Shown here piece by piece: positions 45,794-58,630 of a DNA stretch of 64,000 nt (position 1 is its first letter; the number at the start of each line of letters is the position of its first letter). A program made the position numbers and the translations under genes. The notes under the pieces are model-generated. The model was not told the DNA's origin. It saw only the letters and a list, made by a program, of their open reading frames with translations, and did no database searches. Source of the DNA: an uncultured Methanoregulaceae archaeon (GTDB lineage Archaea > Halobacteriota > Methanomicrobia > Methanomicrobiales > Methanospirillaceae); NCBI GenBank assembly GCA_963701095.1, contig OY969564.1:1280001-1344000 (forward strand), written 5' to 3'.

Positions 45794-46762
45794 TTATCCT
45801 TGTTTTCCAAGAATCCCGGTAATCGCTTCGCCGAACTCCATTGTCCCGGCAGAACCCCCGATATCCCTTGTACGGATGCCGGAAGCCAGTACCTTAGTTA
45901 TAGCTGATTCTATCCGTCCGGCTCCTTCATTGTCCCCGAGATACTCAAGAAGCATTGCAGCGCTCCGCAACGCCGCCACAGGATTCGCGATGTTCTTACC
46001 TGCTATATCCGGGGCACTGCCGTGAACCGGCTCAAAAAGGGCGTACCTGTCGCCGATATTGGCACTCGGGACAAGGCCAAGGCCTCCCACAAGATATGAT
46101 GATACATCAGAAAGGATATCGCCAAAGATGTTCGTGGTTACGATTACATCATAAGCCTCTGGGTGCTGAAGAATATCGAGACTCAGTGCATCGATGAACT
46201 TGTCATTGTAAACTATTCCCGCTTTTTTTGCTTCAGCTATGCAGATGTCACGGAAAAAAACGTCGGATTTGAGAACATTTGCCTTGTGCCCTATGGTGAG
46301 TTTTCCTTTTCGTTGGTGTACACACCGTAATGCTGCTCGTGCGATCCGTTCTGTTCCCCTACGGGTCACGACCCGGAGCGTTGTAGCACGATCCTGTTCT
46401 ATCTCTTCGATCCCCGAGTACAAGCCTTCAGTGTTCTCCCTGACAATCATGATGTCAAAACCGTCACCCCGGATGGGCCTCAAGTTTGCAAACAGATCGA
46501 GCGCTTTACGAATCCGTAGAACAACGCTTTGGTAATCTTTCATCGGCGGTGTCGTTATTGCCCCGAACAGTACGGCATCAGCCGTTTTGAGCGCGGAAAT
46601 GTCGTTATCTTTGCAAGGGCACCCTGTTTGTTCCCAACGCCCATAACCTACCTCTACCGGGAAGAAGTCATAATCGGGATGAAGCAGAAAGAGCACTTTT
46701 TGTGCGACCGGAATCACCTCATGACCGATCCCGTCACCTTCGACTATAGCAATCCGGGTCAT
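45794..46762 (-). CDS. aksF: Homoisocitrate/isopropylmalate dehydrogenase family (probable AksF)
   Basis: GDGIGHEV, RENTEGLY, NIFGDILSD, EPVHGSAPDIAG; in operon with aksA/D/E. Confidence 0.78.
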   Translation of the reverse strand: MTRIAIVEGDGIGHEVIPVAQKVLFLLHPDYDFFPVEVGYGRWEQTGCPCKDNDISALKTADAVLFGAITTPPMKDYQSVVLRIRKALDLFANLRPIRGDGFDIMIVRENTEGLYSGIEEIEQDRATTLRVVTRRGTERIARAALRCVHQRKGKLTIGHKANVLKSDVFFRDICIAEAKKAGIVYNDKFIDALSLDILQHPEAYDVIVTTNIFGDILSDVSSYLVGGLGLVPSANIGDRYALFEPVHGSAPDIAGKNIANPVAALRSAAMLLEYLGDNEGAGRIESAITKVLASGIRTRDIGGSAGTMEFGEAITGILGKQG

Positions 46763-47560
46763 CTTTTCCTCCAAAGGGTGACCAGTTCCCGGACAGACCG
46801 GGCAATCTTTGCGGGATCCGCCCCCCAATGGACTATTGCACCGAACTTATCGTTCCATGTACCGATACCTTCACGTTCGGCCCGGCAGCACCGGGCAATA
46901 AACGGCTCTTCTTTTACCTGTTCCAGAGGACAGATATTTTCGAGCTCAAAATCCGTGCCATAGCATTCGGTACAGAATTGCTTTGCCGTAAGACAACCGG
47001 CGACACGTTCACCCCCCTGAAGAGGATCGGCATCCAGTGTCCGTAGATAACCCGCGGCCCTGCAGGGATAAACATCAGCAGGGACTAAAGTGATGTCACG
47101 GATATGATAGTCAAACGCTACCGAGAGTTCTCCGAAAAGTCCGATTGCCTCCATTTCCATAAGGCTCGCCGAAAGGGTCGGACGGGGCGGAATGACATCG
47201 TAGATGTGAATCGTGAGGAATCCTGACAGATCCGGATCAAGTACAAATGTTACGTGCTCATCAATACCTGTAAAAATGGTACACCGGTGCCCGCTTTCAG
47301 ATGCGAGCCGGACCAGCCGGACCCTGTCGTTGAGCTGTACTTTCTCCGGGAACCAACAAACTTCTTCGGGAGTCGCCAGAATCTTGGAGGATATAACTTT
47401 CCTCATAACACTTTTCAGCTGCCGGATCAAGAGTAACTTCAAGTATCTCGTATCCCCGATCCGTCTCATGCAGAAGATAACGGCTCAAGGCATAAACAGC
47501 ATCACCACAAGGCCGTGTCGATGCCAGTCCCACGTATTTACATTGTTCCGGGAAGATCAC
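46759..47560 (-). CDS. Cys-rich hypothetical protein in aks operon; frameshift at ~47413
   Basis: GTG start overlaps the aksE stop ([11 protein letters not shown]...); C-terminal YPCRA, GCLTAKQFCTECY, NICP, RCCR. Confidence 0.75.
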
Positions 47561-48028
47561 CGGCGAGCCCTCCAGTATTTCACAAGGCCACCAGCCATTA
47601 GGATCTCCTGCATCCGGGGTGACAGCGGGCAAATAGTATATCGTTTTCCTCTCGACTCTACCCATCCACCCGAAAGGTCAAATTCAATCGTGCTTCCTTC
47701 TCCACAGGTAAGATCCGATTCGATAAGCGGAAGGCCTATGTTAATTGCATTCCGGAAAAATATCCGGGCAAATGAGGGGGCAATAACGGCAACCACTCCG
47801 GCCTCCCGTAAGGCAAGAGTCTGCCTGTTCCCGGGATGAGCCACACCCGAAATTTTTGCCAGCGACAATCACGGCACCTTTGAGACGAGGGGCAAGCAAA
47901 GGATCGAGATCTTCGAACACGTGAGTCGCCCAGACATCATAATCCTTGGTCCGTAAGTACCGGCCGGCAATTATAACGTCGGTATCGATATCCGCCGGGA
48001 GACATACGGCTATCCCTCTCCCCCGCAT
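47557..48028 (-). CDS. aksE: Homoaconitase small subunit; frameshift at ~47820
   Basis: [14 protein letters not shown] (YLRT loop typical of methanogen homoaconitase), [27 protein letters not shown]. Confidence 0.85.
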
Positions 48029-49239
48029 TATCCTACCTCCGGTGATGTCATTTCGCCTTCGAGAGCGCTTGCCGCTGCCGTTGCAACGGATCCGAGGTAA
48101 ATTTCTCCGCCAATACCCATTCGGTTTTTAAAATTCCTGTTTGCCGTTGATAAACAGACTTCGCCTTCTCCAAGTACCCCCATATGGTAGCCAAGGCAAG
48201 GGCCGCATCCTGGCGTTCCGATGGTGCATCCGGAACCGACGATATCTGCGAGTACGCCTGTCCGGATTGCTTTTTCGAGAATTGAGGCTGAAGCCGGGAC
48301 AACGATGGTCCTCACGGCAACTTTCTTTCCCCGGACCAACCGGGCAAATCTGGCGAGATCAGAATACCGGCCATTTGTACAGGTGCCGACAAAGACCTGG
48401 TCGATTGGCACACCTGCTACCGCATCTACGGGTTTTACCGTGTCCACACGGTGAGGTACAGCGACAAGGGGTACGATATTGCTGAGATCGAAATCGAGTT
48501 CCCTACGGTATATACAGGATTCGGGTTCCTGACACAACACATCATGTCCATGCTCCTTCAGGAAACGGATAGTAACGTCGTCTGAATAGAAAAGCCCCGT
48601 TTTTGCCCCTGCTTCGACAGAAAGGTTTGCAAGAACGAGACGTTCATCCATGGACAGGTAGTGCACGCCTTCTCCCACAAACTCAAGTGCATCATAGGTC
48701 GCACCGTCAGTACCGAGTTTACCTATGTAGGCAAGCGCCAGATCCTTGGCTTCCGCAGCTCCCGTCAACCTGCCGGTCAGATTGATACTGATTGATTCAG
48801 GAACCCGGAACCAGGTTTCACCGGTCAGCCAGATGGAAGCCATATCGGTTGCGCCCACGCCGGTTGCAAACGCTCCGAACGCACCCATCGTAACACTGTG
48901 GGAGTCAGCACCAACAACAATCTCACCTGGCAGTACAATACCTTCACTCATCAGCTGATGGCAGATACCACAGCCAACGTCGGAGAACTGCATAGACGAT
49001 CTCTTCGCAAAATCCCTGAGATCATGCTGGAGTGCCGCCGTTGTACTATTATTGGCAGGGGCTATATGGTCAAACTGAATATAATATCTGGTATCTTTTC
49101 CCAGCCGATCTCCACCCATATTTTTCCATGCCTCTAGTGCAAGGACACCGGTTCCGTCATGGGCATATGCCCTGTCAACTTTCCGGTCTACATATTCCCC
49201 AGCAGATGCACCAAGAATACGTTCGGAAAGGGTACTCAT
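48028..49239 (-). CDS. aksD: Homoaconitase large subunit
   Basis: [47 protein letters not shown]. Confidence 0.85.
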
Positions 49240-50366
49240 ACTGTAGTCTCCCGTTGTACCCGTCGGATCAGTTTCTGGAGAATTTCAGGGGTAATACTGC
49301 ATTTCTGTTCGGAATGTTCCTTGACAAGATCCAGCACCCGGCATATCTGGGCCTCTGATAGTTCCTCGCCAAGTGAAGCAATAATGTGTTCGAGCGCCTT
49401 TCTCCCGGTATGTTTACCAAGAATAAAGTGACGTTCGCCCCCTACAAGGGCTGGGGGGAAGTACTCGTAGGTTGACGGATCTTCAAGAATTGCCGCAATA
49501 TGAATGCCACTTTCATGCGAGAATGCAAGATCTCCGGTTATCGGTTTGTTTTTCGGAAGCATAATGCCCGAATATTTTTCCACTTTTTTGGAAAGTCCTG
49601 ACAGGTGTGAAAGATCATACCGGTCTATCCCACCTTTTGTCCGGAGGATTACCAGCACTTCCTCCAGTGCTGCATTACCAGATCGTTCGCCTATACCGTT
49701 GACTGTCGTGTGGAGCTGGAAAGCACCGGCCTGTGCGGCAGTAACCGTATTTGCGACAGCACATCCCATATCGTTGTGGCAGTGAGCGCAGAATGGACGA
49801 TCAACAGAAGAGACAAGATCTGTCATAATCGTTCGCATCTCATCCGGGATCAGGCATCCTACCGTATCCGCAAAACTGAGCAGGACAGCCCCGTGATCAG
49901 CTGCACGCCGGTAAACTTCCTTGAGAAAAACAATATCGGTCCGGGATGCATCCTCAGCCGCAAACCTAACAGCAACCCCGTGGTCCCTGGCGAAATCGAT
50001 CATGGAAAGGGCATCTTCTAGTACTTTTTCGCGAGGTTTTCGGAACTTAACCCGGATATGGAGATCTGAAGTGGGGATAAAGATGGAAACCATATCAACA
50101 CCGCAGTCTATGGCTGCTGTGATATCCTCTTTCCTTGCCCTTGCAAACCCGCAAATCCGTGCATCAAGCCCGAGATGTGCGATCGTTTTTACGCACTGTT
50201 TCTCGTTTTCAGAAACTGCCGGGAACCCGGCCTCTATCACTTCAACACCGACAGCATCAAGTGTTCGGGCGATATCAATTTTTTCTTCGCAGGAAAACGA
50301 CACACCGGGTGTCTGTTCTCCGTCTCGCAGCGTTACGTCACAGATTTCAATATTCCACGGTTTCAT
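49236..50366 (-). CDS. aksA: Homocitrate synthase-type 2-oxoacid acetyltransferase
   Basis: DVTLRDGEQTPG, HCHNDMG, NGIGERSGNA, HESGIH. About 376 aa and lacks the LeuA/CimA regulatory domain. Confidence 0.82.
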   Translation of the reverse strand: MKPWNIEICDVTLRDGEQTPGVSFSCEEKIDIARTLDAVGVEVIEAGFPAVSENEKQCVKTIAHLGLDARICGFARARKEDITAAIDCGVDMVSIFIPTSDLHIRVKFRKPREKVLEDALSMIDFARDHGVAVRFAAEDASRTDIVFLKEVYRRAADHGAVLLSFADTVGCLIPDEMRTIMTDLVSSVDRPFCAHCHNDMGCAVANTVTAAQAGAFQLHTTVNGIGERSGNAALEEVLVILRTKGGIDRYDLSHLSGLSKKVEKYSGIMLPKNKPITGDLAFSHESGIHIAAILEDPSTYEYFPPALVGGERHFILGKHTGRKALEHIIASLGEELSEAQICRVLDLVKEHSEQKCSITPEILQKLIRRVQRETTV

Positions 50367-51618
50367 GATGAGCTCCTTTTGGGCACTGTGCTTCGACCAC
50401 AACTGTTAACGGACCATCCGGGTAGCGGATAATATCACGGAGGCGACTTTCATCTTCAGCGGGACAGATTTCCGGGTCTGCCCAATCGATGTAGCGGGCA
50501 GGATTACTCACGGGTTGGCCTCCAGTCATCGCGGCGCAGTGATTGCTCATAACAATACACAAGAGGGAGAGCCTTTTTTCATATACATCGATAAGGGCAT
50601 TGAGACCGGAGTGGAGTAGTGCATAGTCACCTATTAGTGCCACATGAGTACTCCGTGCCGCAACCGCAATACTCGAACCCATCCCATAGCTCGCAATCCC
50701 CAGTTCGTACGGTGGGTTCATCACAAAAACCGAGCACCCGGCATCACATATCAGGCGCATTCCTTTTTCCCTGAGGATACCAAGGAGGGGTTTATAAGGA
50801 CACACGGCACAGAAAGTCCGGCCAAATCCCCGTTCTTCCAGTGATTCCGGCCTTTCCTGTTGAGCCGGGGGTGCATGAGTTCGATGATCCTGTACAAAGG
50901 ATCGGCCGTACTCATTCACCTTCGGAAACGATGCAACACGCTCTGGTACCGGATTGACTGTCACGAGTCGGGAAACCCCCGGTGCAGGACCTGCACCGAG
51001 AATTCCTCCCTTCCACTGGTTCAGGGGTGACATTTCCGACCACATAAACATCGTGCGGTAAGTTTCCTCTGCCGCAGTAACTCTACCGTGCATTGTCCAG
51101 GACTTGTCGGCAAGCTTTCCTTTTCCCTGATGCCGGGGAACGGGGGTACCTGAGATCTCAGCGTCTAACAGATAATGTGTAAGCCGGAGCATGGCGACAC
51201 GGGAAAATCGTTCCGATGCCTCAAGGGCTGATTCTACACCGGTAAAACAGGTCTCGTCGTCAGGCTCAATTACGGGAAGCTCTGCCAGTTCCCCGTAATA
51301 CCGGGAATCCTGCGCTGTCTGGGAACCTTTGGCTTCAGGATCGTCACCTACAACGAGAATGATGCCTTTTTCGATACCTTGTACTGATGCCTGGGCAAGG
51401 GGGTCAGCACACGCGTTCACTCCCACATTTTTTATTATAACTGCAACGCGTTGACCGGAGAGGGAATCACCAAGCGCATACTCAAGTGCCGTCTTTTCGT
51501 TGATGACCAACTCGGCACCGGTTAATGTGCCAAGTTCTGTTACCGGAAAACCTGGAACGGTATATTGACGGTCAGTACCTGCACGTATTGCCCGAGCCAG
51601 CGCTTCAGCACCTTTCAT
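50347..51618 (-). CDS. ThDP-dependent enzyme, truncated IorA-like
   Basis: VPGFPVTE, INEKTALE, KNVGVNACADP, FCAVCPY, CDAGCS, GDYALLHSG...N..AMTGGQP; no ferredoxin domain. Confidence 0.85.
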   Translation of the reverse strand: MKGAEALARAIRAGTDRQYTVPGFPVTELGTLTGAELVINEKTALEYALGDSLSGQRVAVIIKNVGVNACADPLAQASVQGIEKGIILVVGDDPEAKGSQTAQDSRYYGELAELPVIEPDDETCFTGVESALEASERFSRVAMLRLTHYLLDAEISGTPVPRHQGKGKLADKSWTMHGRVTAAEETYRTMFMWSEMSPLNQWKGGILGAGPAPGVSRLVTVNPVPERVASFPKVNEYGRSFVQDHRTHAPPAQQERPESLEERGFGRTFCAVCPYKPLLGILREKGMRLICDAGCSVFVMNPPYELGIASYGMGSSIAVAARSTHVALIGDYALLHSGLNALIDVYEKRLSLLCIVMSNHCAAMTGGQPVSNPARYIDWADPEICPAEDESRLRDIIRYPDGPLTVVVEAQCPKGAHHETVEY

Positions 51619-52582
51619 TCGTCCCTCCCGGGCACAAGGTCGCAACCCCCGCAAACCGTGCACATGGTCAGCGCACTTGAAGTGTCAAGTCCGTTACGGG
51701 ATAAAGCCCGGCTGTGTTTTGCAAAGAGTTTTTTGAGTCTTTCAGCCGAAGGCCGTGATTGTCCCGCATACCCTGCAACCGGATTAAGAGGTCGAAGCAC
51801 CGGGATCACGCCATGAGATGTGAGTCTATCGATACAAGCCTCCATTTCTTCGTCGGTTTCACCGAGCCCGACAATTACATTGGAGAAAACCCGGCCTTTC
51901 CCGAAGAGTTCCACGGAACGATCAAGAATCCGCCAGAGGAGTTCATAATCGAGACCCGGGCACACTGCTTCAAAGAGGTCAGGTGTTGCAGCCTCAAGAT
52001 TAAATTTTACTTCCGCTACTCCAAGGGCATGGAGCTTGTCTGGAGTCTGATCTGTCGGGTAGATGGAGACCCCAAGAGGCAGGCCAAAGAACTTCAAATG
52101 ATCGATAACCTCACAAATGTAATTCTCCTCCTCTTCAATACTATCATAAACGCCGCTTGTCAGCGATATGGCACTCACACGGTGCCGGACGGATTCGACG
52201 AGATCCATAATTTCTTCTATAGTCTTGCGTTTTCCCGAGAGCCGCGGAACTGAACAATAGCGGCAGGAGAATATACAACGTTCTGTAACTGTGATAAATG
52301 CCTGATCCGGGCAGTGAAGCCCCGCCGGAGGAGTCTACCGGAGATCTGGCGATCGCCTAAATACAGATCGGCAACTCCATCACCCCGGTGAATAATTTCG
52401 ACTCGGGAGGTTTGGTTAATGGCCAACTTTACCCGGTGGCCGCCCATAGCAAAAAAAACCGAACCCTTTCCGCCGGCACCGGGTCCGGCAGTAGATTTTG
52501 CAATAAATTCATCGGCAGCTTCTCCACTAAGACGGGCAGAACCGGTCTCAAGTAACAAGGCCTTTAGATCTTCCCATTGCAT
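51615..52582 (-). CDS. Radical SAM protein (biotin-synthase-related type); frameshift at ~52328
   Basis: Rejoined frame HCPDQAFITVTERCIFSCRYC (CxxxCxxC), SNVIVGLGET, C-terminal CTVCGGCD. Confidence 0.88.
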
Positions 52583-53460
52583 AATTTGAGTGCCTCCTCA
52601 TAGCGGGTATAAAATGGCAGGGCAGTTACTGCCCCGGTAATTCCTCTACCGTCCATGACTATGTGAAGAGAGGGATCATCAATTTCCCTGACAAGATCCG
52701 GTGTCACTTCCCCCCGTTTGACTTTTCTTGCGTAATCCAGCAGCTCTTGTGATGGGGTAAAACCCGTATAAACCGCCATTCCGGTCTTTTCTGATAGGGT
52801 ATATCTTTGGAGAAACTCGCTAAACTTACTGATGAGAGATTCCGGTTTTGTGGTACCAAATTCAGCAACGAGACTTACACAATTCTTTGTCCGAAATGCT
52901 ACCGGGAAGAGCTGGACAATCGTATGCGACAGGTACGAGGTGTGTTCATCTTCGACTGCACGTGCAAGGTTATGGACAAGCGTCCACGTTGCACCTTCTT
53001 CAGATGTATCGGTGTCGTCCACTCCGATAAGCACCCGCTGACGCCGGGGCAGCCAGAGCGTCGCAGCTGCTACTTTTCCTCCGCCGGCTGGATCACAGTG
53101 TTCCCGCAGTACTCCACGGGCCGCAGCACGGCAGGATGTGGCACCGACCCCACCCCCGCCCATACCAATATAAGTGACCGCTATTTCATCTCCCGAAACG
53201 GATACCCCTGAGATACCTGCAGGGAACCTGGATCCTTCCAGTGCGAGATTCTCATTACCAGGATGTAGCAGGAACCGGGTTGTTCCTCCCACGCACCTGA
53301 CATTCTCAACAAGTGGGCTCTTGGCGTAATGGTGTTGGGTCCACATCGCACCGCCTATACAGTCAAAAAATTCGACTAACTCGACTTTGCTACCGGTATC
53401 ATCTGCCATCGCCACGATCTGGGGATACCTGATGATATAAGGTTCAGAGATGTTCACCAT
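52564..53460 (-). CDS. Methanogenesis marker protein 11-like (TiaS N-terminal-like domain)
   Basis: PYIIRYPQIVA, VEFFDCIGGAMW, GMGGGGVGA, IGVDDTD...GATW, QLFP...TKNCVS, GRGITGA. Confidence 0.8.
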   Translation of the reverse strand: MVNISEPYIIRYPQIVAMADDTGSKVELVEFFDCIGGAMWTQHHYAKSPLVENVRCVGGTTRFLLHPGNENLALEGSRFPAGISGVSVSGDEIAVTYIGMGGGGVGATSCRAAARGVLREHCDPAGGGKVAAATLWLPRRQRVLIGVDDTDTSEEGATWTLVHNLARAVEDEHTSYLSHTIVQLFPVAFRTKNCVSLVAEFGTTKPESLISKFSEFLQRYTLSEKTGMAVYTGFTPSQELLDYARKVKRGEVTPDLVREIDDPSLHIVMDGRGITGAVTALPFYTRYEEALKLCNGKI

Positions 53461-54400
53461 ACAGACCCGCCGCCTCAATCCCCCGGTTCCCCCAGAGCAC
53501 TGCACCTAACGCACCAATCCTTCCCTTTCTACCGTTCCTGTCAAGAAACTCGACACCCAGCCTCCGGGCTTCCCGCTCAGTATCTTCAAGAGCAACAATC
53601 TCGGTTTTGATAGTCTTATGCATCGGGGACTCCTCAACTGTCCCAATTCCTCGGACCACTGCAATTCCGGTATCATTCGAGAACGTATGCTCTTCTATAA
53701 ATGAGCGAACAAATTCGCAAAGCGGCCCAGTGCTCCCAGGACGGGTGGCGAAATTGAGTGCGGAACACACGCAGTTTGTAGTTTTATGAGGGACTGCAGG
53801 GTTAAGCTGGACAAGACGCATACCGAGGAATTCCACACCTTTGATACGACATGCTTCAGCACATTTGAGTGCTGTAACCCATGTCGCACCTTCCTGTTTG
53901 GTATCCGTATCGTCAATGCCGAAACAAACTTTCTCGTACCGGGGGGTTACGATTCTCACGTGATTTATCCGGGCGCCGCCTATTTTCAGATCATCTTCGG
54001 AGGGATATTCCGACCGGAGGACTCCAGGAGCCTGCGGAAGGCATGCAGCAATGCCGACACCGGCACCGGCAATTCCCACCCAGGTTGTCATGACCTCGTC
54101 ATCTTTTACTTCAACTGCTTCCAGTGCCTGTCCCCCAATCGTTTCCGACGCTGCCCCGAAGTTGATCGCATGTCTGCCGAAGCGTGCCCTCATCGTCATC
54201 ATTTTTCCTTCAACATTGCACGCGATCATTGCACCACCTGCACGAGATCGGTTCATGGCATCCCACTCTATTGTTCCCCGGGCATGGCACTGCTCAAGAA
54301 TTTCAGCAAGCCCTGTCTTTTCGTCGACCATTACCAAAAATTTCTTCGAGAAAAGCTGGCCAAACCGTTGCTTGACATCATCCGGAGTAAGTATGATCAT
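53444..54400 (-). CDS. Second marker-11/TiaS-like paralogue
   Basis: GIAGAGVG, FGIDDTD...GATW, VQLNPAVPHKTTNC, GRKGRIGALGA. Confidence 0.75.
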   Translation of the reverse strand: MIILTPDDVKQRFGQLFSKKFLVMVDEKTGLAEILEQCHARGTIEWDAMNRSRAGGAMIACNVEGKMMTMRARFGRHAINFGAASETIGGQALEAVEVKDDEVMTTWVGIAGAGVGIAACLPQAPGVLRSEYPSEDDLKIGGARINHVRIVTPRYEKVCFGIDDTDTKQEGATWVTALKCAEACRIKGVEFLGMRLVQLNPAVPHKTTNCVCSALNFATRPGSTGPLCEFVRSFIEEHTFSNDTGIAVVRGIGTVEESPMHKTIKTEIVALEDTEREARRLGVEFLDRNGRKGRIGALGAVLWGNRGIEAAGLYGEHL

Positions 54401-54482: not shown

Positions 54483-55367
54483 TTAAAGAACGTTGGAAAG
54501 TTCGATCTTGAACGGTCCAAGAGTGCCGCCAAAATTACCAGCCGAGATAAATTTTATGCCGGGAACTTGCACTGCAGCCTTGATACCTGCTCCCATCGCA
54601 GCAGCCACACTTTTCTCATCGATACCATCGATAACAATTTCATAGACTGCTTTGACACCGGCGGGAACCTTGCTGTCCGAAACTTTCTCACGGAGTGTGG
54701 GACAGTATTTCTCATTAGTCGATGCAGTCATGAATTTGTACTTCAGACTACCGACCTTTGACCCGCTTGCCACGATGCCCCCGGGGAAACTTGTAATGAC
54801 ACCTTTTACATCCGCGATGGCATCCGATGCCGCTTGGGCTGCCATGAGCGCTGCCATCTGGTTCTCTCCCATGATAAAGAAGTTACCACCGGCAACACCT
54901 TTTACAATGCCAAATTCTTCTTCGCCGATATATTCGCCGTTCATGATCGGGATCACCCAGCATTTCCTGCCACCAACTTCTTTCTGATACTCGTACCCGT
55001 CACCAAAGAAATGGAGTTTTACCGGGATCTTTTCCTCAGCAGTGGTGATACCGTTGAATACTGCTGTAGTAGGTGCAGTTAGTACGCATTCGGCAAGACG
55101 TTCGACGACCTGCTCTTTGAGTTTCTTCTTGCTTGCACAGATGAGAATCGAAACGCCCGGCCTTCCATCGGGCGTCTCGCTGCCGGAAAGGACGCTCTCA
55201 ATACCTGCTTCGCAAGGGCAGCCAATCGCAGATGTCGCAAAACCGGTGGCTTCCGTTGCCGCCTTAAGTGCCCAGTCTTTTGTTACTGCGGTGATAATAA
55301 CCCGGCAGACCCAGGTAGGGAATGCCTCCGCGTAGGTGTTGTCAATTGTTACGCCATTAATTTCCAT
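54483..55367 (-). CDS. ftr: Formylmethanofuran:H4MPT formyltransferase
   Basis: MEINGVTIDNTYAEAF, TGFATSAIGCPCEAG, TPDGRPG, FPGGIVASGSKVGS, ISAGNFGG. Confidence 0.97.
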   Translation of the reverse strand: MEINGVTIDNTYAEAFPTWVCRVIITAVTKDWALKAATEATGFATSAIGCPCEAGIESVLSGSETPDGRPGVSILICASKKKLKEQVVERLAECVLTAPTTAVFNGITTAEEKIPVKLHFFGDGYEYQKEVGGRKCWVIPIMNGEYIGEEEFGIVKGVAGGNFFIMGENQMAALMAAQAASDAIADVKGVITSFPGGIVASGSKVGSLKYKFMTASTNEKYCPTLREKVSDSKVPAGVKAVYEIVIDGIDEKSVAAAMGAGIKAAVQVPGIKFISAGNFGGTLGPFKIELSNVL

Positions 55368-55932: not shown

Positions 55933-57106
55933 ATGGCATTGTTTCCAAAGTTTTCCAAAAAGAGGGATGGTGTCAACGTTGTGATGGAGCAGCGTCTCCT
56001 CCAGAACGTGAACAACCTGATTTTGAATTCAGAGACCTGCACGGGATGCGGTATCTGCGTCGAGTCGTGTCCTGAGGATGCTATTGTCCTCGGACTTGTC
56101 GGTGCAGCCCGCCGGGGTGCCATTAATTATGCGACGCCGGTCGATATAGACGAGACTAAGTGCTCGGTACTGCGGTGTTTGTGTCATAATGTGCCCATTC
56201 AATGCATTGACTCTGAAAGTTGACAATCAGGAGCGGCTTCCCATAGTTGAAAAAGAGGGATTCCCGCAGTATGACATGAAGGCAGAGATTGATGAAGAAA
56301 AATGCGTAAGGTGCACGATTTGTGAAGAGGTCTGCCCGCGTGACGCAATCGATCGTAATGTTCCTGCATACGAAGGGACCTATAAGGGACCGGTTGCCGG
56401 AGCAAAGGATCGCCAGACGGCACTTACAGCAAAGACCACCTTTACGGTAGATAAGGAGAAATGCACTCTGTGCGGTATCTGTGGTGCACTCTGTCCTGCC
56501 ATAAGGGTCAAGCATAAGGAATTTACTGCTGCGAGTGGAAAAGTCGAGGGCGATGTGATCTGGGATGAGACCAAGTGTGACGCATGCAAAGTGTGTGTAG
56601 AAGCCTGCCCTGAAGAATGCATCACCGTTGAACGCGAGGTCATCTCGGATAAGGTAAGTGGCAAAGTCACCATTATACAAGATAACTGCTGCACATGCAC
56701 GTGGTGCTCGCGCAATTGCCCAACTGAGGCAATTACGGTCGAGAAAATCTTTGAAGGCGATATAGAGTTCCATGCGGAAAAATGTCCCGGTGGTTGCTCG
56801 ACCTGCGCAGAAATATGTCCAGCAAATGCGATCTATCTTCCAAGTGAGAAACCAGCAGCAGAGATGGGGCACAATATTGAACCCACCATCGCAGTTAACA
56901 AGGATTATTGCATTCTGTGCGGTGCCTGTGTTGATGCTTGCCCCGGTGAAGACATTATCGTGCTTCAACGTACTGGTATCCGGATGAAAGGCACGGAAAC
57001 TGATCTCTTCAAGAAGATCAAGGAGAAGCTCTTTACGAAGAGAACCTCGAAGGTGAAGGAAGGTATTGCCGGTCAGGTCGGACTAAAAATGATGGAGAAG
57101 GCGTGA
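55933..57106 (+). CDS. fmdF: Polyferredoxin subunit F of formylmethanofuran dehydrogenase; frameshift at ~56166
   Basis: About 8 CxxCxxCxxxCP motifs across ORFs 55933..56223 and 56189..57106; adjacent to hdrCBA-mvhD. Confidence 0.88.
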
Positions 57107-57118
57107 GGGAGGACGAGT

Positions 57119-57700
57119 ATGGCAAAAACAAAAGGTTACCCGGAAGCGCTGGAGAAAAAACTCCACGATCAGCGGTATTACCGTGAAGACTCGAATCCTG
57201 ACTTTATTAAGAAAGTCGAAGGGAGTTCACGAACCATCGCCCATATGTGCTATCAGTGCGGCACCTGCACCGGCTCGTGTCCTTCTGCACCTAGAAGTAC
57301 CTACCGTATCCGCAAATTCATGCGGAGAGCTGTTCTTGGGCTTGAGAATGAAGCGCTCACCGATCCAGATCTCTGGCTCTGCACCACGTGTTACAGCTGC
57401 ACCGACCGTTGCCCCCGTGACATTGCACCCACTGATGTTATAATGTCCATGAGGAACATGGCATTCACCCGCGATATTATACCGGTGAACTTCCTCAAGA
57501 CCGTGCAGGCAATCTATAGTTCCGGCCACGGTGTGCCCAATAATGACGTTAACCGTGCAGCCCGGGAAAAACTCGGACTCACTCGCGACCCGCCGACCAC
57601 TCATATGTACCCTGAATACATGCCGGCCATCAGGAAGATCATCGACCACTACAACCTCAAGGCAAATGCCGACCGGATTGTCAAGGAACGGGAGGGATAA
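57119..57700 (+). CDS. hdrC: Heterodisulfide reductase subunit C
   Basis: CYQCGTCTGSCP and WLCTTCYSCTDRCPR. Confidence 0.95.
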   Translation: MAKTKGYPEALEKKLHDQRYYREDSNPDFIKKVEGSSRTIAHMCYQCGTCTGSCPSAPRSTYRIRKFMRRAVLGLENEALTDPDLWLCTTCYSCTDRCPRDIAPTDVIMSMRNMAFTRDIIPVNFLKTVQAIYSSGHGVPNNDVNRAAREKLGLTRDPPTTHMYPEYMPAIRKIIDHYNLKANADRIVKEREG

Positions 57701-57706
57701 GAGAGC

Positions 57707-58630
57707 ATGTCAGAATCCAAAGCTAACCATACGTTCGCGTTATACCTTGGCTGTATTGCACCGAACCGGTACCCGGGTGTAGAATCCGCGTCCATCAAAG
57801 GATTCAAGAAACTGGGTATCGATCTGGTCCCCCTCAAGGGAGCAAGCTGCTGCCCGGCCCCCGGTGCGTTCGGTTCCATCGATCTGAATGTTTTTTACGC
57901 TATGGCGGCACGCAACCTTGTACTCGCCGAACAAATGAAGACTGATATTGCCCTGGTCTGCAACGGCTGCTACAAGTCAATCTGGGAAGTTAACCACAAA
58001 CTCAAACACAACAAGGATCTCCGCGATAATGTCAACGAAGTACTCAAAGAAGTTGACATGGAGTTCAAGGGAACTATCAACGTCTATCACGTTGCCGAGC
58101 TTCTCTATAACGACAAATTTGCAGGAGTCGCTAAAATCAAGGACACTGTGGTAAATCCATTGACCGGTGCACGTATTGCCGTCCACTACGGCTGCCACCT
58201 TACCAAACCCCACAAGGACCGGGAGTTTGAAAAGGAGGTCATGTTAAACACCGAGTGTCCGACTTGGATGGAAGAGCTCGTCGCAGCCATTGGTGCAACA
58301 CCGGTTGAGTACCGCAACAAGATGCAGTGCTGCGGCGCCGGTGGTGGCGTCCGCGGTTACGATATCGTCCACTCGCTGGATATTACCAACGAGAAGCTGA
58401 TCAACCTTAAAGAAGCAAAGGTGGATGCATTAACCGATATCTGCCCATTCTGCCAGCTCCAGTTCGACCGCGGCCAGATCGAGATCAAGGAGAAATTCGG
58501 TGTAGAGTACAATTTACCAGTACTGCATTTTGCAGAGCTCCTCGGTCTTGCACAGGGAATGAGCCCACAGGAACTCGGGCTTGACCTGCACGGAATCAGC
58601 TGCGAACCATTCCTGCAGAAGGTGCTGTGA
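57707..58630 (+). CDS. hdrB: Heterodisulfide reductase subunit B
   Basis: CCG domains: LGCIAPNRYPG, SCCPAPG, CNGC, HYGCH, CCGAGGG, CPFCQLQFD. Confidence 0.97.
   Translation: MSESKANHTFALYLGCIAPNRYPGVESASIKGFKKLGIDLVPLKGASCCPAPGAFGSIDLNVFYAMAARNLVLAEQMKTDIALVCNGCYKSIWEVNHKLKHNKDLRDNVNEVLKEVDMEFKGTINVYHVAELLYNDKFAGVAKIKDTVVNPLTGARIAVHYGCHLTKPHKDREFEKEVMLNTECPTWMEELVAAIGATPVEYRNKMQCCGAGGGVRGYDIVHSLDITNEKLINLKEAKVDALTDICPFCQLQFDRGQIEIKEKFGVEYNLPVLHFAELLGLAQGMSPQELGLDLHGISCEPFLQKVL

Follow-up and report, generated by a model that had tools for sequence, protein, structure and literature searches.

A short IorA-derived thiamine diphosphate protein encoded beside aksA in Methanomicrobiales is a candidate 2-oxosuberate decarboxylase of coenzyme B synthesis

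Introduction

The stretch of DNA analyzed here (the window) comprises 64,000 nucleotides (nt) from an uncultured Methanoregulaceae archaeon (assembly GCA_963701095.1, contig OY969564.1, positions 1,280,001 to 1,344,000), and the gene at 50347..51618 on its minus strand (window positions are used throughout) encodes a thiamine diphosphate (ThDP, or TPP) protein of 423 amino acids (aa), here called the TPP protein. We propose that it may be the missing ThDP-dependent, non-oxidative 2-oxosuberate decarboxylase of coenzyme B synthesis, an identification whose chances we judge to be about even. By its sequence the protein belongs among the 2-oxoacid:ferredoxin oxidoreductases (OFORs) and descends from the indolepyruvate ferredoxin oxidoreductase alpha subunit (IorA). 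Its ferredoxin domain has disappeared together with most of domain II, and a domain III or IorB partner is absent; as read from alignments, its ThDP site, the carboxylate-binding Thr and Arg and all four cysteines of the proximal cluster are retained. Given the intact 2-oxoacid site, the coupling of the gene to aksA and its joint loss with aksA in a related genus, a 2-oxosuberate decarboxylase would be the best fit.

Every reaction of methyl-coenzyme M reductase, whether it forms methane or oxidizes methane or alkanes, depends on coenzyme B and, to our knowledge, only the 2-oxoacid elongation genes of its pathway (aksA, D, E, and F) have been assigned. The reviewed pathway leads from 2-oxoglutarate to 2-oxosuberate and on to suberate semialdehyde, and in the part of the review that outlines it genes are named only for the elongation (Aks) enzymes (PMC3087415). 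A search of the full-text literature, with subscription-only journals and supplements outside its coverage, found no paper assigning the TPP family, Mmp11 or DUF7714 to coenzyme B.

Results

The reading frame of the TPP gene is intact and runs from an ATG at 51618 to a TGA at 50347-50349. An alternative GTG start at 51663 would extend the protein to 438 aa; the ATG is favored because the 120 best relatives among 5.8 billion clustered proteins (66-100% identity) are all 423 aa long as well. Where the closest relatives are named, they are Methanoregula proteins called “thiamine pyrophosphate-dependent enzyme” or “indolepyruvate ferredoxin oxidoreductase alpha subunit,” and the ortholog at the locus L004 is 87% identical over residues 1-423. 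The downstream aksA gene starts at an ATG at 50366, with AAAGGAG 7 nt upstream, and overlaps the TPP stop by 20 nt; the 5′ end of the TPP gene in turn overlaps the stop of the upstream radical S-adenosylmethionine (radical-SAM) gene (ATGA). These overlapping starts and stops on both sides indicate translational coupling. An earlier note on this DNA had placed a shortened, IorA-like ThDP protein of about 423 aa at 50347..51618, immediately upstream of aksA with overlapping stop and with no iorB neighbor, and all of this is borne out by the minus-strand frame, the family matches, the measured overlap and the identity of the two flanking genes (radical-SAM upstream, aksA downstream). Its description of the gene as stand-alone was inexact: the gene is an internal member of a ten-gene operon.

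The best family model for the protein was NCBIfam IOR_alpha (TIGR03336), at 143.9 bits against a cut-off of 650.9 and split over two stretches, the better of which aligns residues 2-147 with profile positions 6-162 of 595. In the Pfam scan, TPP_enzyme_C matched at 31 bits (cut-off 21.9) and TPP_enzyme_N at 16.6 bits, below its cut-off of 26.8, with no match to TPP_enzyme_M or Fer4; the protein also has no CxxCxxCxxxCP motif, and the ComDE models TIGR03845 and TIGR03846 are not listed for it in the NCBIfam scan. In OFOR terms, its one chain joins domain I to a domain II of reduced size and to domain VI, whereas the ferredoxin domain (V) and the coenzyme A (CoA) domain (III) are missing.

The PYR domain (OFOR domain I; residues 1-147, 51178..51618, minus strand) lies within the OFOR alpha alignments and carries the YPITP-like G23-F-P25-V-T27, R106, and the cofactor-activating E41. 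The reduced domain II-like region that follows (residues 148-250, 50869..51177, minus strand) falls within the same alignments and is variable in length across the family, with other short forms lacking as many as about 50 residues of it. The PP (diphosphate-binding) domain (OFOR domain VI; residues 265-423, 50350..50826, minus strand), located by alignment with 5b48_B, contains C270-x2-C273, C295, G330-D-Y...N359 and C412, and the chain ends 11 residues past C412, the last cluster cysteine. Within it, family alignments and PDB OFOR beta profile matches identify C270-A-V-C273 (50800..50811, minus strand) as the counterpart of the CXGC proximal-cluster motif. The absence of a C-terminal ferredoxin domain and the presence of a ThDP motif (GD...N), both claimed in the earlier note, were thus correctly read.

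An alignment of the TPP protein with ten cluster representatives of 370-425 aa (39-54% identical) comprises 11 short forms, among which E41, G330-D331-Y332...N359, H336, C270, C273, C295, and C412 are invariant, while residues 150-265 differ in length by about 50 residues; domain II is full-size in the relatives of about 500 aa (mid forms). In an alignment of 82 sequences that joins short forms, mid forms and true IorAs, conservation is at least 90% for all of these residues, for T27, Q103, D104, and R106, and for the whole of G23-F-P25-V-T27. The four cluster cysteines are invariant in the short forms, at least 97% conserved in the mid forms and 95-100% conserved across all three groups. In solved OFORs, as described in the structural passages of PMC5020499, the Thr of YPITP and a conserved Arg bind the 2-oxoacid carboxylate, and the proximal cluster is ligated by a conserved CXGC motif, that of Cys12b and Cys15b; R106 is matched to that Arg by position only. 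The TPP protein thus very probably binds ThDP plus one [4Fe-4S] cluster, at an iron-sulfur (Fe-S) site predicted from the alignment, and, since all four cysteines that ligate the proximal [4Fe-4S] cluster in OFORs are invariant, a feature absent from the earlier note, it is probably an Fe-S enzyme rather than a plain decarboxylase scaffold.

The AlphaFold2 model of the protein (predicted local distance difference score 95.1, predicted template modeling score 0.94) found, in an exhaustive structural comparison, its top whole-chain match in 8x3x_A (Z 27.0 over 333 residues), followed by 6lpi, 8vzj, and 5npu at Z 25-26, which are of the acetohydroxyacid synthase (AHAS), 2-hydroxyacyl-CoA lyase and pyruvate decarboxylase types. 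The OFOR alpha chains 6n2n_A, 5b47_A, 9bt4_A, and 5c4i_A cover residues 1-249 (Z 21-23), and the OFOR beta chain 5b48_B covers residues 265-417 (Z 13.7). Foldseek matches to decarboxylase-family chains reached E ~1e-15 with a global root-mean-square deviation near 16 Å, so they were not used for residue mapping. The high likeness of fold to decarboxylase-type ThDP enzymes suggests that the TPP protein may work like one. In sequence searches of the PDB, phmmer with the single sequence gave nothing relevant for the whole protein or its C-terminal domain, and only the profile built from the 82 sequences reached OFOR chains. Oxalate oxidoreductase beta (5c4i_C) was matched at E 5.3e-8, with its CxxC, GC, and C-PKG cysteines in the same columns as the TPP-family cysteines, and the alignments to 5b48_B and 5b46_B (Sulfolobus OFOR beta) begin at chain residue 12. 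Short IorA-like proteins exist beyond methanogens too: a cluster in the ESM Atlas contains 143 bacterial ThDP proteins of 386 aa, most often from the phylum Ignavibacteriota, with template modeling scores of 0.76-0.83 to the model.

The scan for relatives, which took one genome per species, found 382, and the locus counts given for the order Methanomicrobiales refer to the best 80 of these 382, which come from Methanoregula, Methanoregulaceae, Methanolinea, Methanoculleus, and Methanomicrobiales. The gene that follows the TPP gene on the same strand is aksA in 79 of the 80 loci; the radical-SAM gene precedes it in 79 as well, the exception starting at a contig end. The other members were present in 78 (hacA), 77 (mmp11a), 74 (DUF7714), 73 (aksF), and 68 (ftr) of these loci, the absences falling mostly at contig ends. 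In a sample of 401 genomes of the phylum, 65 of the 67 genomes of the same order gave a strong match (>488 bits), and short forms also occur in Methanofollis and Methanorbis.

The search for the TPP family reached across this sampled phylum, outside which Methanococcales and Methanobacteriales lie. Weaker matches with frames of about 500 aa were found in the families f7 (52/52 genomes), f10 (24/24), f14 (15/15), and f24 (12/12), and also in f30 and f34; tallies at E <=1e-25 also catch true IorA and are therefore upper bounds. We fetched 18 mid-form loci, of which f7 contributed seven, f14 five, f10 and f24 two apiece, and f30 and f34 a single one apiece; every one of the 18 contains mmp11 (14 loci), aksA (10) or both, with hacA, aksF and DUF7714 also present in seven. 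Source names of the mid-form clusters include Methanotrichaceae, Methermicoccaceae, and Methanosalsum.

A natural loss within one genus (g19) follows the same association. Two of its genomes, G189 (99% complete) and G294 (97%), have an IorA-level match only and no member of the TPP family, and their locus (L150 on contig C55 and L151 on contig C23, respectively) reads mmp11b-mmp11a-rSAM-DUF7714 contiguously, with no gap and no N. The cluster hacA is absent from both, the best match being LeuC-like at 40-41%, vs. 62-64% in the sister genomes G224, G289, and G369, which hold the complete set. The cluster aksA is absent too: the best match in G294 is at 38%, and G189 keeps a 58%-identical copy that we take for the counterpart of a second copy also present in G224. 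Thus, the TPP gene was lost with the module that makes 2-oxosuberate and not with mmp11, the radical-SAM gene or DUF7714, as would be expected if the TPP enzyme consumes the Aks product. Both genomes retain ComDE (E 1e-67), and the pattern suggests that both import a precursor of coenzyme B from a stage beyond 2-oxosuberate. We also considered the ComDE-like second copies in G189, G294, and G147 as an in-cluster replacement and rejected them, as the roughly 10 kb around them contain neither aks genes nor mmp11. The connection with the Aks pathway and coenzyme B drawn in the earlier note is strongly supported by the conserved position next to aksA, the location of relatives beside mmp11 and/or aks genes in six other families, the co-loss and the separate clade described next.

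The host genome, a single contig of 2.63 Mb, carries a separate IorA of 602 aa with Fer4 matches at residues 548-597, and a 194-aa PF01558 (IorB) gene overlaps the 3′ end of this true iorA; the iorAB pair lies about 66 kb from the TPP gene. In a phylogeny against true IorA, as the earlier note had proposed (100 rows, quick IQ-TREE, midpoint root only), the TPP protein stands apart from bona fide IorA. All 42 short forms fall on one side of a branch with a Shimodaira-Hasegawa approximate likelihood ratio test (SH-aLRT) support of 100 and a stem of 1.13, and the mid forms (33 rows) and the IorA group (25 rows) make up two further, distinct sets with supports of 84 and 85, respectively; because the tree is unrooted, short and mid forms as sisters are allowed by it, not proven. 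No PF01558/IorB gene was found beside the TPP-family gene at any locus examined (the 80 best loci and 20 flanking open reading frames in 12 of the mid-form loci), and these 20 frames are otherwise mutually unrelated. The CoA-binding domain III (gamma subunit or IorB) is likewise absent from the TPP chain and from the neighborhoods examined, though the product of the distant iorB might serve in trans. It seems probable that the automatic annotation “indolepyruvate ferredoxin oxidoreductase alpha subunit” is wrong for the whole TPP family.

The operon that contains the TPP gene lies entirely on the minus strand and, according to family matches, begins its conserved row with ftr (formylmethanofuran-tetrahydromethanopterin formyltransferase, 54483..55367). 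Two genes for methanogenesis marker protein 11 (Mmp11), a protein with a TiaS-like kinase domain, come next: copy b (53444..54400; TIGR03280 at 190.6 bits, below the cut-off, and TiaS_TCKD) and copy a (52564..53505; TIGR03280 at 331 bits, cut-off 255.8, and Pfam TiaS_TCKD). The radical-SAM gene (51615..52582), of the MSMEG_0568/variant_rSAM type by family matches and distantly LipS2/LipA/BioB-like, stands immediately before the TPP gene. Downstream of the latter are the aksA-type homocitrate synthase family gene (49236..50366), hacA/aksD for the large homoaconitase subunit (48028..49239), hacB/aksE for the small one (47560..48028; NCBIfam HacB2_Meth and LEUD_arch), the gene for the remotely XcbA-like DUF7714 protein (46759..47560; PF24830 and NF052538) and the aksF-type homoisocitrate dehydrogenase gene (45794..46828), of which aksA, hacA and aksF were likewise identified by family matches. 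All four Aks enzyme genes thus lie within the TPP operon, and the row at L004 is the same: ftr, mmp11b, mmp11a, rSAM (322 aa), TPP, aksA, hacA, hacB, DUF7714 (266 aa), and aksF.

In this assembly the radical-SAM gene (near 52316-52322), hacB (near 47810-47829) and the DUF7714 gene (near 47372-47442) are each split by a frameshift, and the intact L004 orthologs (322-aa radical-SAM protein, 156-aa HacB, 266-aa DUF7714 protein) align in two frames. Three split genes in one operon, together with the estimated completeness of 86% for a single 2.63-Mb contig, point to indel errors in the assembly and not to pseudogenes; the frameshifts are most likely sequencing errors, and the TPP gene is unaffected by them. 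An FwdF-like polyferredoxin gene at 55933-57106 on the plus strand also lies in two overlapping frames (96 aa matching profile positions 3-66 and 305 aa matching 66-335), apparently the result of a fourth frameshift over a distance of about 10 kb. Genes for two subunits of the coenzyme B-coenzyme M heterodisulfide reductase, hdrC and hdrB, follow at 57119-58630 on the plus strand, divergently upstream of ftr, and the whole TPP neighborhood is methanogenesis-related. A third Mmp11-like paralog (136 bits) is encoded outside the window, at 238195-239022 of the host contig (G000:C1).

The DUF7714 protein is a remote, near full-length match to NCBIfam XcbA, at 52-59 bits (cut-off 150) and E 3e-14 to 3e-16 for the copies in the window (46759-47560) and at L004 (14058-14858). 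XcbA is described in the coenzyme M sections of PMC9457059 as a protein with a [2Fe-2S] cluster; in the bacterial synthesis of coenzyme M, it converts sulfoethanethioaldehyde to that coenzyme by reduction. The DUF7714 gene is a neighbor of aksF in Methanomicrobiales and at seven loci from other families, and its product is a candidate for the step that forms the thiol of coenzyme B. It was found in 178 of the 401 genomes (67/67 in families f1-f6, 52/52 in f7, 23/24 in f10, 15/15 in f14, 12/12 in f24, 1/1 in f30, and none in f8), so that its family-level distribution is nearly the same as that of the TPP family, except that all three f28 genomes have DUF7714 without a TPP-family match at E <=1e-25. 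Among 14 control genomes, only Methanosarcina acetivorans gave a DUF7714 match, and Methanocaldococcus jannaschii was negative.

Mmp11 is more widespread, with 199 of the 401 genomes over the cut-off (including 21/64 in f8 and 3/4 in f16), and among the control genomes only the two methanogens match. In ten loci of f8, f16, and f31 (L152-L161), from genomes that have no TPP-family match above the level of true IorA, mmp11 adjoins a MSMEG_0568-type radical-SAM gene in nine, and DUF7714 was not found in five of these genomes; in three loci of the genus g54, the mmp11-rSAM pair is closely followed by the coenzyme M genes for cysteate synthase and ComDE. Two modules seem to exist: a widespread one of mmp11 plus the radical-SAM gene, and one of the TPP gene plus DUF7714 that is confined to Methanomicrobiales- and Methanosarcina-type lineages and tied to aks.

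Discussion

We infer the substrate and the product of the TPP protein from the company that its gene keeps. The enzyme would most likely bind 2-oxosuberate, the end product of the Aks enzymes, and its decarboxylation on ThDP would give 7-oxoheptanoate as the released product. Turning the aldehyde into 7-mercaptoheptanoate might then fall to the radical-SAM protein, to the XcbA-like DUF7714 protein in the role of a thioaldehyde reductase, or to both, and the TiaS-like Mmp11 proteins could attach the thiol to threonine and phosphorylate it.

The nearest sequence family, IorA (TIGR03336), has in common with the TPP protein the PYR domain I, the PP domain VI, the ThDP motif, the four proximal-cluster cysteines, G-[YF]-P-x-T and the Arg of QDxR. 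Unlike IorA, the TPP protein has no C-terminal ferredoxin domain with two [4Fe-4S] clusters, a shrunken domain II and no adjacent iorB, and its gene belongs to a different, conserved operon. Decarboxylase-type ThDP enzymes (pyruvate and indolepyruvate decarboxylase, AHAS, 2-hydroxyacyl-CoA lyase, HKA synthase) have the same single-chain order of PYR, middle and PP domains, but they are only 11-16% identical and lack the cluster cysteines, and the TPP protein joins them only in the generic TPP_enzyme_C family. That an OFOR site can release an aldehyde non-oxidatively is reportedly seen in the pyruvate:ferredoxin oxidoreductase of Pyrococcus, which is said to act as a pyruvate decarboxylase, there as a side activity of a complete, CoA-dependent, four-subunit enzyme. 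The analogous step of the sister pathway is that of ComDE, which uses ThDP to decarboxylate a 2-oxoacid non-oxidatively and so yields the aldehyde that becomes the thiol coenzyme, as outlined in the same sections of PMC9457059; ComDE belongs to another ThDP family and has no Fe-S site.

Several points weigh against a plain decarboxylase in the coenzyme B pathway. The fold searches place decarboxylase-family and OFOR chains alike, so the fold leaves the chemistry undecided, and R106 is replaced in 2 of the 11 aligned short forms (P0128 and P0130). A plain non-oxidative decarboxylase would need no cluster cysteines, yet all are invariant, which weakens the non-oxidative chemistry suggested in the earlier note and makes oxidative or electron-transfer chemistry possible; the cluster might have a structural part, or the reaction itself might be oxidative. 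In f8, f16, and f31, genomes have mmp11-rSAM without the TPP family or DUF7714: the TPP family is thus not universal among archaea with Mmp11, so that either another enzyme does the step there or the step differs. The co-loss in g19 is probably a single evolutionary event. Finally, the host genome has no recognizable ComDE (the best ComE match is 35.8 bits against a cut-off of 221.5, and the TPP gene is not among the ComE-model matches), which leaves room for a role in coenzyme M synthesis.

The invariant cluster cysteines speak for an oxidative, OFOR-type action on 2-oxosuberate within the coenzyme B pathway, a reading that we consider unlikely. Electrons would pass from hydroxyalkyl-ThDP via the [4Fe-4S] cluster to an external ferredoxin or to a neighboring Fe-S protein (the radical-SAM or XcbA-like one), and some thiol or sulfur nucleophile, but not IorB-bound CoA, would trap the acyl-ThDP; the resulting pimeloyl thioester or thiocarboxylate would be reduced later. 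Two predicted Fe-S proteins are indeed encoded in the operon, and there is a precedent for the architecture in StOFOR1/2 of Sulfolobus tokodaii (PDB 5b46-5b48), a working OFOR that the structural part of PMC5020499 presents as having a single [4Fe-4S] cluster and no ferredoxin domain. Its a chain matches residues 1-249 of our model (Z 22.4) and its b chain residues 265-417 (Z 13.7). StOFOR differs in having domain III fused to the a-subunit and a full domain II, and it makes acyl-CoA from pyruvate or 2-oxoglutarate, whereas the TPP protein is a single chain without domain III. Neither domain III nor IorB stands beside any locus examined, the oxidative route would cost four extra reducing equivalents compared with the aldehyde route, and labeled 7-oxoheptanoate has reportedly been seen to enter 7-mercaptoheptanoate. 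Suberate semialdehyde is, moreover, listed as an intermediate in the pathway outline of PMC3087415.

A more elaborate arrangement, which we regard as rather improbable, would make the TPP protein the ThDP/[4Fe-4S] core of a module, not described before, that forms the C-S bond. Its cluster would couple an OFOR-type radical or carbanion, derived from 2-oxosuberate, to two partners: the radical-SAM protein, which is LipS2/BioB-like, and the [2Fe-2S] reductase that resembles XcbA. If so, 7-mercaptoheptanoate would be made without a free aldehyde, and the operon with its Mmp11 genes would account for every late step that is still missing from coenzyme B synthesis in class II methanogens.

We are doubtful, a shade more so, of a third reading, in which the protein is an analog of sulfopyruvate decarboxylase for coenzyme M, or a decarboxylase common to both thiol coenzymes, and supplies sulfoacetaldehyde to the XcbA-like reductase. 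Consistent with it are the missing ComDE of the host, the 18 of 61 genomes of the order in which ComDE was likewise not found, the position of mmp11-rSAM just upstream of cysteate synthase and ComDE in the three g54 loci, and the role of XcbA itself as a coenzyme M enzyme (in the sections of PMC9457059 cited above). However, the TPP family occurs alongside ComDE in the other 43 of the 61 genomes, two of the host genus included; G189 and G294 kept ComDE while losing the TPP gene together with the aks genes; and the TPP gene is physically coupled to aksA, not to cysteate synthase.

The same Aks product could also feed biotin synthesis, since 2-oxosuberate is said to have been proposed as the source of pimelate in methanogens, and an enzyme that keeps the OFOR-type cluster cysteines might make pimelate or pimeloyl-CoA from it. 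This is very improbable for the TPP protein: the best bioB match in the host genome is 32.8 bits against a cut-off of 225, with no bioF match there, no CoA-binding partner was found in the neighborhoods examined, and the family is associated with mmp11, itself a gene restricted to methanogen-type genomes (among the 14 controls, it matched in the 2 methanogens only). Least credible of all is an ordinary IorA paralog that borrows IorB in trans to oxidize aromatic 2-oxoacids, its place next to aksA being functionally meaningless. In favor of it, IOR_alpha is the best model, public records carry the IorA name and the host has an iorB; but the score falls far below the model cut-off, the clade is separate with full support, the ferredoxin domain is missing, the neighborhood is kept across the order and six further families, and the gene was lost jointly with the aks genes.

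Thus, to return to the decarboxylase, the TPP gene is a concrete and widely conserved candidate for the decarboxylation step of coenzyme B synthesis, and the XcbA-like DUF7714, the MSMEG_0568-type radical-SAM protein and Mmp11 are candidates for the later steps. The TPP family is an OFOR variant, probably with a new function that fills a known gap in the pathway. If this is true, an oxidoreductase scaffold would have been cut down for biosynthetic decarboxylation, and the enzymes of this operon would offer new methanogen-specific targets for methane mitigation.

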